Positions 37,363 through 37,721 of a DNA stretch of 44,456 nucleotides are shown here, one piece after another. Both the position numbers and the translations under genes were made by a program. The notes below the pieces were generated by a model. The model made no database searches and had not been told where the DNA came from. It was given only the letters and a program-made list of their open reading frames with translations. Position 1 is the first letter of the stretch; each line of letters begins with the position of its first letter. The stretch is from the sequence record PV656001.1, one strand, 5' to 3'. Source of the stretch: Escherichia phage vB_Eco_ORH_001.

Positions 37363-37434
37363 GAGAATAGTTACGTTGCCGTTGTGATTCTTCGGGGAAG
37401 GTTGTGCCTTTATTCTTATTACTTGGTAACTAAA

Positions 37435-37455
37435 GGGCAGGCCTTAAGCCTGCCC
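37435..37455. other. 8-bp GC-rich hairpin in a long noncoding region
   Basis: gggcaggc-cttaa-gcctgccc. Confidence 0.4.
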
Positions 37456-37595
37456 AATAATCGTTACATTTTTACGGTTGCGAATCTACAGCACATTAAG
37501 AAACAGTAGATATTTCAGCGGGTTACTTCTTTAAATGAGATTTAGATACACTTATCCTTAAACCCCAAGGCAAGCATCTCAGCTGTCTGGGAGGG

Positions 37596-37627
37596 GTTGA
37601 CGAATCCCTCGGGGAGGGTTCGTCAAC
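37596..37627. other. strong 14-bp hairpin with one bulge (candidate origin or RNA element)
   Basis: gttgacgaa(t)ccctc-ggg-gagggttcgtcaac, paired by hand. Confidence 0.45.
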
Positions 37628-37721
37628 TCCGTAATATATACAAGTCCCAAAACCATTATACAAACATGTGTCAAGAACTTTCAATAACATTTTTGTAAAG
37701 ATTAAATATTACAGAGATTGG

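Follow-up and report, generated by a model that had tools for sequence, protein, structure and literature searches.

Phages are known to carry small RNAs, promoter-terminator units and origins linked to promoters. The T7 primary origin (phi1.1A/1.1B plus an AT-rich region) and the T4 origins ori(uvsY) and ori(34) (a promoter plus a downstream unwinding element, with priming by an R-loop) place a promoter in or beside noncoding DNA near replication genes and need no dedicated initiator, and we know of no T7 or T4 origin that has a terminator among its parts. Short RNAs that are made by the host RNA polymerase from their own constitutive promoter and end at an intrinsic terminator are represented by lambda oop (77 nt) and P22 sar, which are located in the early region beside replication genes and are antisense to a neighbouring gene. 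The divergent early regions of lambdoid phages and other siphophages have back-to-back promoters that face apart and a palindromic operator repeated in several early promoters. Finally, the RSF1010/IncQ oriV works with the hairpins ssiA/ssiB, the primase RepB' and the helicase RepA, the latter being an AAA_25 protein whose partner primase recognises the ssi hairpins.

The genera Kagunavirus and Jerseyvirus are among the most often isolated coliphages and Salmonella phages and are used in therapy, in biocontrol and as engineering chassis (e.g. CM001); no description exists of either their early regulation or their replication origin. The present analysis concerns a noncoding gap in Escherichia phage vB_Eco_ORH_001 (PV656001.1), and the window is the whole analysed stretch of 44,456 nucleotides. 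The GenBank taxonomy of this phage stops at "Viruses", and its nearest relatives belong to Kagunavirus within the Guernseyvirinae. The record PV656002.1 (Escherichia phage vB_Eco_Hrm2) is a rotated reverse complement of the window with 100% identity. Positions 1 and 44456 of the window carry the same base, the window counting 44,456 bases and the GenBank record 44,455. When two doubtful CDS are disregarded, no other noncoding stretch of the genome is as large as this gap of 482 bp. The region 37309-37781 is bounded on the left by a gene of the leftward operon and on the right by the HTH_17 gene, after which orf96, a 42-aa ORF and the 740-aa helicase-primase follow. The replication genes are of the T7 type: besides the helicase-primase they encode an exonuclease, a family-A DNA polymerase and a gp2.5-like SSB, and no gene is annotated as a dedicated initiator. 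Judged from the sequence, the gap probably contains a terminator, two hairpins of conserved structure and a strong leftward promoter of its own, which together would specify an RNA of ~220 nt. The features of the region are the following, in positions of the window:

37299..37114, minus strand: first gene of the leftward operon of small ORFs, left neighbour of the gap
37334..37362, minus strand: P_left, promoter of the leftward early operon (TTGCAC-17-TACTAT), identified by its repeated box and fixed geometry
37366..37392, no strand assigned: left flank AGTTACGTTGCCGTTGTGATTCTT, which accompanies P_left in every cassette type
37396..37503, no strand assigned: conserved noncoding core of 108 nt, delimited by cross-record identity
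37428..37455, minus strand: intrinsic-terminator-like element with an 8-bp GC stem, a 5-nt loop and UUUAGUU, from a terminator scan
37428..37648, minus strand: predicted noncoding RNA of ~220 nt, placed by the positions of promoter and terminator
37593..37630, minus strand: second hairpin, near the 5' end of the predicted RNA, with ~17 bp, one bulged base and a 3-nt loop
37655..37684, minus strand: orphan sigma-70 promoter (TTGAAA-18-TATAAT), an 11/12 consensus match from a consensus scan
37660..37720, no strand assigned: AT-rich spacer between the back-to-back promoters, GC 17-25%
37722..37750, plus strand: P_right, promoter for the rightward operon of regulator and replication genes (TTGCTT-17-TATACT), with conserved hexamers
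37782..37964, plus strand: HTH_17 (excisionase/MerR-like) DNA-binding protein of 60 aa (Pfam PF12728, E = 1.6e-8)
38446..40668, plus strand: replicative helicase-primase of 740 aa with an AAA_25 domain (Pfam PF13481; phrog_3228)

An earlier note on this DNA had described a noncoding region with AT-rich stretches and two hairpins, located between divergent early promoters and adjoining a regulator and primase-helicase block. Its observation is confirmed. The AT-rich DNA is found at 37660-37720, the neighbouring genes are recognised by Pfam (HTH_17) and by Pfam and PHROG (AAA_25 helicase-primase), and the ORFs in the gap come without credible coding evidence. Three mechanical ORFs occur there, of 59 aa and 33 aa on the plus strand and of 55 aa on the minus strand, and apart from one weak match they lack a Shine-Dalgarno sequence. 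According to GenBank the gap encodes small proteins, namely CDS0072 (37330..37509, plus strand) and CDS0071 (37597..37698, plus strand), and both are likewise annotated as hypothetical proteins in PV656002.1, Bas71 and KMB35. We regard this as highly improbable, because the three longest ORFs of the gap match no PHROG family, CDS0072 has no Shine-Dalgarno site, would start inside P_left and contains 1-nt and 10-nt indels in relatives, and both ORFs are missing from the other cassette types. The two CDS look spurious also because they span the noncoding core and the large hairpin. When all ORFs of at least 10 aa were inspected on both strands of four cassette types, they were unconserved and only two had a weak Shine-Dalgarno match, and coding was rejected. 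Over more than 330 nt downstream of the orphan promoter, no ORF with a Shine-Dalgarno sequence or with conservation across cassette types was found.

The two promoters that face away from the gap are supported by repetition and conservation, as the earlier note had proposed them. P_left overlaps the operator-like palindrome AATAG-N4-CTATT within the box 37331-37348. This box, TGAATAGTAnCCTATTAT, is present in 6 copies in the window compared with 0.05 expected, and at four of the six sites a gene starts about 25-40 nt downstream in the same geometry. For P_right, the -10 hexamer is invariant and the -35 hexamer conserved in all relatives aligned, and the promoter scan returned a homologous TTGATT-17-TATACT in Jersey and NTEC3. 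The left flank next to P_left is kept in the Sciku, K-01 and AV104 types, in which all DNA to the right of it is replaced. In the fBC-Eco01 paper, the P_left consensus corresponds to the 'phage promoter' reported by PHIRE, and the motif AATAG-N4-CTATT is called a promoter for a phage-encoded RNA polymerase (PMC9825357); no RNA polymerase gene is annotated in the record of the present phage. The motif is found in six promoters, at 15763-15780 (minus strand), 35559-35576, 37331-37348, 40930-40947, 40974-40991 and 43287-43304, and these promoters show two architectures, TTGCAC-17-TACTAT reading away from the box and TTGACA-17-TATAGT with the box in the spacer. Two of the copies lie on either side of the start of the Cro/CI-like HTH_3 gene 40686..40901 (minus strand), which suggests that this gene may encode an autoregulated early repressor.

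A third promoter, inside the gap, had escaped the earlier note. Sites with a sigma-70 match of at least 11/12 occur only three times in the 44 kb when both strands are scanned, with 0.59 expected from shuffles. Two of them, 40966-40994 and 43279-43307, are evidently real promoters, since they are located directly upstream of genes and have an operator box in the spacer. The remaining one, 37684 to 37655 on the minus strand, drives no gene and reads to the left, into the gap. Among the 10 distinct window-type relatives its hexamers do not vary and its spacer drifts, which is the conservation pattern of a promoter. All 34 core-carrying loci that are not of the window type have a minus-strand TTGACA/T-N17-TAAGKT beside P_right, in which the hexamers hardly change and their spacing not at all, with a spacer sequence that varies, and the cassettes of Sciku, K-01 and AV104 have a minus-strand TTGACT-17-TAAGCT. 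In the fBC-Eco01 record, a minus-strand host promoter and a minus-strand terminator were independently annotated, without comment, by the depositors at the homologous positions.

The 8-bp GC hairpin reported previously at 37435..37455 was recovered exactly, with arms at 37435-37442 and 37448-37455 that are 100% complementary and enclose a 5-nt loop; its stability corresponds to z = -5.2 as DNA and -5.3 as RNA against dinucleotide-preserving shuffles. On the minus strand, the stem of 8-9 bp with 7 GC pairs is followed by TTTAGTTACC, and because this U-tract stands directly after the stem the hairpin reads as an intrinsic terminator, an orientation that the earlier note did not contain. The U-tract is short (UUUAGUU, 5 U in 7). 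Across 30 distinct relatives, 99.6% of the cells of the stem are paired, and compensatory double changes occur at two of the eight pairs (C:G<->T:A in 7 sequences, A:T<->G:C in 1). The covariation score and the count of cells changed on both sides were reached by no shuffle. The loop is variable and flipped in two phages, and the U-tract side of the hairpin is invariant in the relatives. Single-sided intermediates comprise a G.T in one sequence and an A.C in another, which imply opposite strands, hence the covariation gives neither the folding strand nor a choice between RNA and DNA. The longer-range helices around the GC hairpin (GUGCC/GGCAC, AUUC/GAAU, GUAAC/GUUAC) obtained no support and no strand call, because they are invariant or show single-sided transitions that are split 3:3 between the strands. 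Comparing strand with strand, RNAalifold indicated no preference for the core and none for the Sciku/K-01 cassette, where 9 versus 8 compensatory pairs were counted.

The second hairpin had been described as a 14-bp bulged stem at 37596..37627; the bulge and the 3-nt loop hold, whereas its size had been underestimated, since it extends over 37593-37630 with ~17 bp. It reaches -24 kcal/mol as RNA (z = -5.9) and is invariant in the 10 window-type relatives except for one loop change. The other cassette types carry different hairpins at this place, with compensatory changes. Both hairpins have z-scores of -4.9 to -5.9 against dinucleotide-preserving shuffles as DNA or RNA and on either strand, and they are equally stable on the two strands.

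The arrangement of these elements is best read as an autonomous immediate-early leftward noncoding transcription unit, to which we assign a probability of roughly 0.45. The host RNA polymerase would initiate at 37684 to 37655, with a transcription start near 37648, and would produce a structured RNA of ~220 nt, the 5' end of which would be folded round the hairpin 37630 to 37593. Transcription would then halt at the GC hairpin and its U-tract (37455 to 37428), ~65 bp before the -35 hexamer of P_left, and in this way the terminator is proposed to keep a constitutive immediate-early promoter from acting on P_left and the leftward early operon. The distance from the promoter to the terminator-like hairpin on the same strand is ~195-220 nt. 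The predicted RNA has a minimum free energy of -74.7 kcal/mol (z = -4.3 versus shuffles), and the MFE structure has the 5' end paired round the large hairpin and finishes with the terminator hairpin at the 3' end. An RNA with helices closing both ends would possess the architecture of a stable functional RNA, and the 108-nt core would represent its 3' domain together with the adjoining DNA. From the promoter, the hairpins with their compensatory changes, the noncoding status and the conservation, as they appear in the sequence and its comparison, we infer the production of the RNA, the position of its end and its action as RNA.

The suggestion of the earlier note that a small RNA could be encoded here has thus gained support from the orphan 11/12 promoter, from the structure-conserved hairpin with a U-tract on the same strand and from the lack of an ORF, and further from a leftward promoter that is kept in every cassette type. 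If the RNA acts in trans, its target could be one that the E. coli and Salmonella hosts have in common; in cis it could serve as attenuator or replication primer. Trans-acting small RNAs of the Hfq type are expected to combine a promoter of their own, a terminator ending in a long U tail and a conserved unpaired seed that pairs with targets; here a promoter, a terminator-like hairpin and conserved unpaired stretches are present, but the U tail is short. With a permissive E-value, the best hit in Rfam 15 was Hrs12, whose 23.3 bits (E = 0.72) stay well below the gathering score of 70; ARAGORN detected neither tRNA nor tmRNA genes, and no complementarity of at least 13 nt was detected between the predicted RNA and the rest of the phage genome. 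The single published Kagunavirus RNA-seq study consists of gene-level counts, with nothing intergenic or strand-resolved. Phage K1B4 (OQ696342.1, locus L087), for which time-course RNA-seq reads are public (PMC12645636), has a cassette of the window type.

The core at 37396-37503 was detected in 334 phage records from two genera, including Salmonella Jerseyviruses; it is nearly full length in 328 of them and at least 90% identical in 308, and its conservation across genera goes beyond what the earlier note had seen. The first 210 nt of the gap have matches in 387 phage records. By comparison, the window is 75% identical to SE2 over the alignable genome, and the C-domain of the helicase shares only about 73% protein identity. 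In a 1.4-kb alignment of 26 distinct loci, conservation peaks at 37406-37495 with a mean pairwise identity of 0.93-0.99, compared with 0.79-0.90 in the adjacent HTH coding sequence. Because 1-nt indels are tolerated in the core, it is not coding. It is invariant for ~35 nt past the U-tract (37400-37434), and this part fits a simple terminated small RNA poorly, since a terminated RNA would not need it. Therefore, a function at the level of DNA or of a read-through transcript is likely superimposed on the core.

In this regard, control exerted purely at the DNA level has to be considered, with the gap as a platform on which DNA-binding proteins of phage and host balance the divergent early operons, the hairpins being palindromic binding sites and transcription from 37684 being incidental. 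The operator-like palindromes in P_left and five other promoters, the two HTH proteins encoded nearby, the invariance of the core on both sides of the hairpin, non-pairing positions included, and the covariation without strand preference are all consistent with such a platform. However, the compensatory changes in the GC stem and the occurrence of differing hairpin sequences at a fixed position favour pairing over base-specific contacts, an entirely different cassette works with the same two promoters P_left and P_right, and the orphan promoter is conserved and among the three best of the genome. We consider this explanation unlikely, and the leftward transcription unit remains the preferred reading.

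To the right of 37503, the window differs from most core-carrying phages, and its own type is represented by 10 distinct close relatives. In roughly a fifth (21%) of the subfamily, estimated from ~424 records with a helicase of at least 60% identity versus 334 records with the core, the DNA equivalent to 37393-37715 is swapped for an unrelated noncoding cassette of similar length, known in the Sciku, K-01 and AV104 types. Every cassette type has a GC-rich hairpin at a constant distance from P_left; in Sciku this hairpin has a U-rich tail, and in K-01 and AV104 it has no U-tract. Because the replacement cassettes keep promoter and hairpin, the architecture, i.e. a leftward promoter, ~250 nt of noncoding DNA and a hairpin before P_left, outlasts the sequence. 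The swaps are independent of the neighbouring genes, as expected of a self-contained gene.

The alternative cassette (Sciku, K-01 and AV104; loci L005, L091 and L092) itself falls into at least two diverged subtypes that are roughly 60-70% identical by eye and have conserved blocks and position-conserved hairpins in common. Jerseyvirus jersey (L003:1630-1806) contains three direct repeats of approximately CAGATACTTAAG, spaced 53 and 104 nt, i.e. roughly 5 and 10 helical turns, and NTEC3 (L006:1699-1764) contains two copies spaced 54 nt; the window type is without this repeat. The CAGATACTTAAG-like repeats may be protein-binding sites. The element was absent from 5,426 E. coli genomes, plasmids yielded only a 33-nt match of the P_left side in one 44-kb record, and a strict 25-nt pattern did not occur in 185,579 bacterial genomes. 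The locus does not qualify as a packaging or terminus site: PhageTerm found no termini in the close relative fBC-Eco01, and the few records that begin inside or near the core do so at differing positions.

Elsewhere in the window, a terminator-like hairpin with U-rich tails is located at 38257-38282, between orf96 and the 42-aa ORF and ahead of the helicase-primase. The fBC-Eco01 record has a both-strand terminator annotated at the homologous site, hence this hairpin may contribute to an attenuation of the replication operon. The 34 nt at 17595-17628 are 100% identical to SE2 in flipped orientation within surrounding DNA of 72-81% identity, and probably represent a palindromic terminator between convergent genes.

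The earlier note, whose anatomy was right and whose interpretation is supported in part, had suggested in the first place a replication origin. An initiator-recognised origin finds no backing in iterons, DnaA or IHF sites or covariation, and a transcription-primed origin is compatible with the data. In the classical form, the primase-helicase or another initiator would bind repeated sites and hairpins and open an AT-rich region. The position directly upstream of the regulator and helicase-primase block and the strong conservation of the core would suit such an origin, and GTTAC/GTAAC reaches its genome maximum here, with 4 occurrences within 165 nt; however, GTTAC is common throughout the genome (3.4 per kb) and another region equals the count. 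The AT-rich stretch 37660-37720 could serve as unwinding element and doubles as the spacer of the divergent promoters. In relatives of the Jersey type, direct repeats occur three times in phase, at spacings of 53 and 104 nt, whereas the window shows nothing but short two-copy matches where an iteron origin would have three or more direct repeats. Matches to the DnaA box are at chance level (39 versus 34.7 expected), the sole one in the gap being the -10 hexamer of a promoter, and the gap contains no IHF consensus.

The helicase-primase belongs to the same AAA_25 family as RepA of RSF1010, which would also speak for hairpin recognition, yet its N-domain covaries with neither the core nor either hairpin. 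Sciku, a phage without the core, has the N-terminal 347 aa at 99.7% identity, and in the Jersey and NTEC3 types, which carry the core, they are unalignable; the C-terminal helicase part is common to all lineages compared, and neither the HTH protein nor orf96 follows the type of cassette. Moreover, 21% of the subfamily live without the core. The missing covariation, iterons, DnaA cluster and IHF site, together with a GTTAC enrichment that is weak, make a classical initiator-and-iteron origin disfavoured at this locus, and we rate it as quite improbable. As an observation on the protein itself, the helicase-primase is modular across the Guernseyvirinae, being swapped up to a point near aa 347 (about 39486); Sciku-type phages share this N-terminal part of ~347 aa with the window type, but it is unalignable with that of most Kagunavirus and Jerseyvirus relatives.

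More room is left for an origin primed by transcription, of the kind of the T7 primary origin or T4 ori(uvsY)/ori(34), although we still hold it to be somewhat unlikely. The leftward transcript would form an R-loop or prime the family-A polymerase and the helicase-primase would load on the displaced strand, with no sequence-specific initiator, which is compatible with a leftward transcription unit. It agrees with the T7-like replisome without an annotated dedicated initiator, with a strong orphan promoter that is conserved in all cassette types and has AT-rich DNA adjoining, and with the exchange of cassettes without covariation of replication proteins, as expected if no specific initiator exists. 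The gap is also the largest noncoding one and is situated at the divergence of gene orientation and at the cumulative GC-skew minimum. The skew analysis that had been proposed as a check does place the minimum at 37-38 kb, but this is not independent evidence because it coincides with, and follows, the switch of gene orientation. In addition, the AT-richest stretch is upstream of the promoter and the downstream DNA at 37500-37560 is moderately AT-rich (30-37% GC), the RNA strand is not G-rich, and a terminator is present here, unlike in the known T7 and T4 origins.

All components of this locus are of known kinds and the element itself is unannotated; it is not surprising in kind. It is the best-conserved noncoding element found in the region, more conserved than the neighbouring genes, widespread and with exchangeable alleles, and in hundreds of records it is unannotated or mis-annotated as tiny ORFs. 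Tentatively, and with chances clearly below those of the transcription unit as such, the core and the leftward promoter might constitute an undescribed functional RNA element of the Guernseyvirinae, either a host-directed immediate-early noncoding RNA with a target common to E. coli and Salmonella or the primer or R-loop of an origin for a T7-like replisome. If true, the origin option would be the first defined host-RNA-polymerase-dependent origin for the T7-like replisome here, and the cassette of Sciku/K-01 would be another allele of this device. Knowing which role the locus has, that of an RNA gene, of an origin or of both, would show engineers what the insertion of payloads into the early intergenic region must spare. 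Furthermore, the locus offers a tractable case of exchangeable noncoding cassettes in virulent phages.

Compared with the RSF1010/IncQ oriV, the present locus shares an AAA_25 helicase and a conserved hairpin with flanks beside replication genes, and differs in having no inverted ssi pair and no iterons and in a hairpin that does not covary with the primase-side domain; a search against solved structures detected nothing. With the divergent early regions of lambdoid phages and other siphophages it has in common the face-apart promoters and the repeated palindromic operator, whereas an extra exchangeable noncoding cassette of ~320 nt, with its own promoter and hairpins, is inserted here between the operon promoters. 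The present phage resembles T7 in its family-A polymerase, gp2.5-like SSB and helicase-primase, and its gap resembles the T7 and T4 origins in the placement of a promoter; in contrast to these, the promoter is of the host sigma-70 type, the AT-richest DNA is upstream of it and a terminator hairpin closes the unit. Lambda oop and P22 sar are alike in that the predicted RNA would be a short product of the host RNA polymerase with its own constitutive promoter and an intrinsic terminator in the early region beside the replication genes. In contrast to these antisense RNAs, with which it has no sequence or Rfam similarity, the predicted RNA would be ~220 nt long and overlaps no gene.
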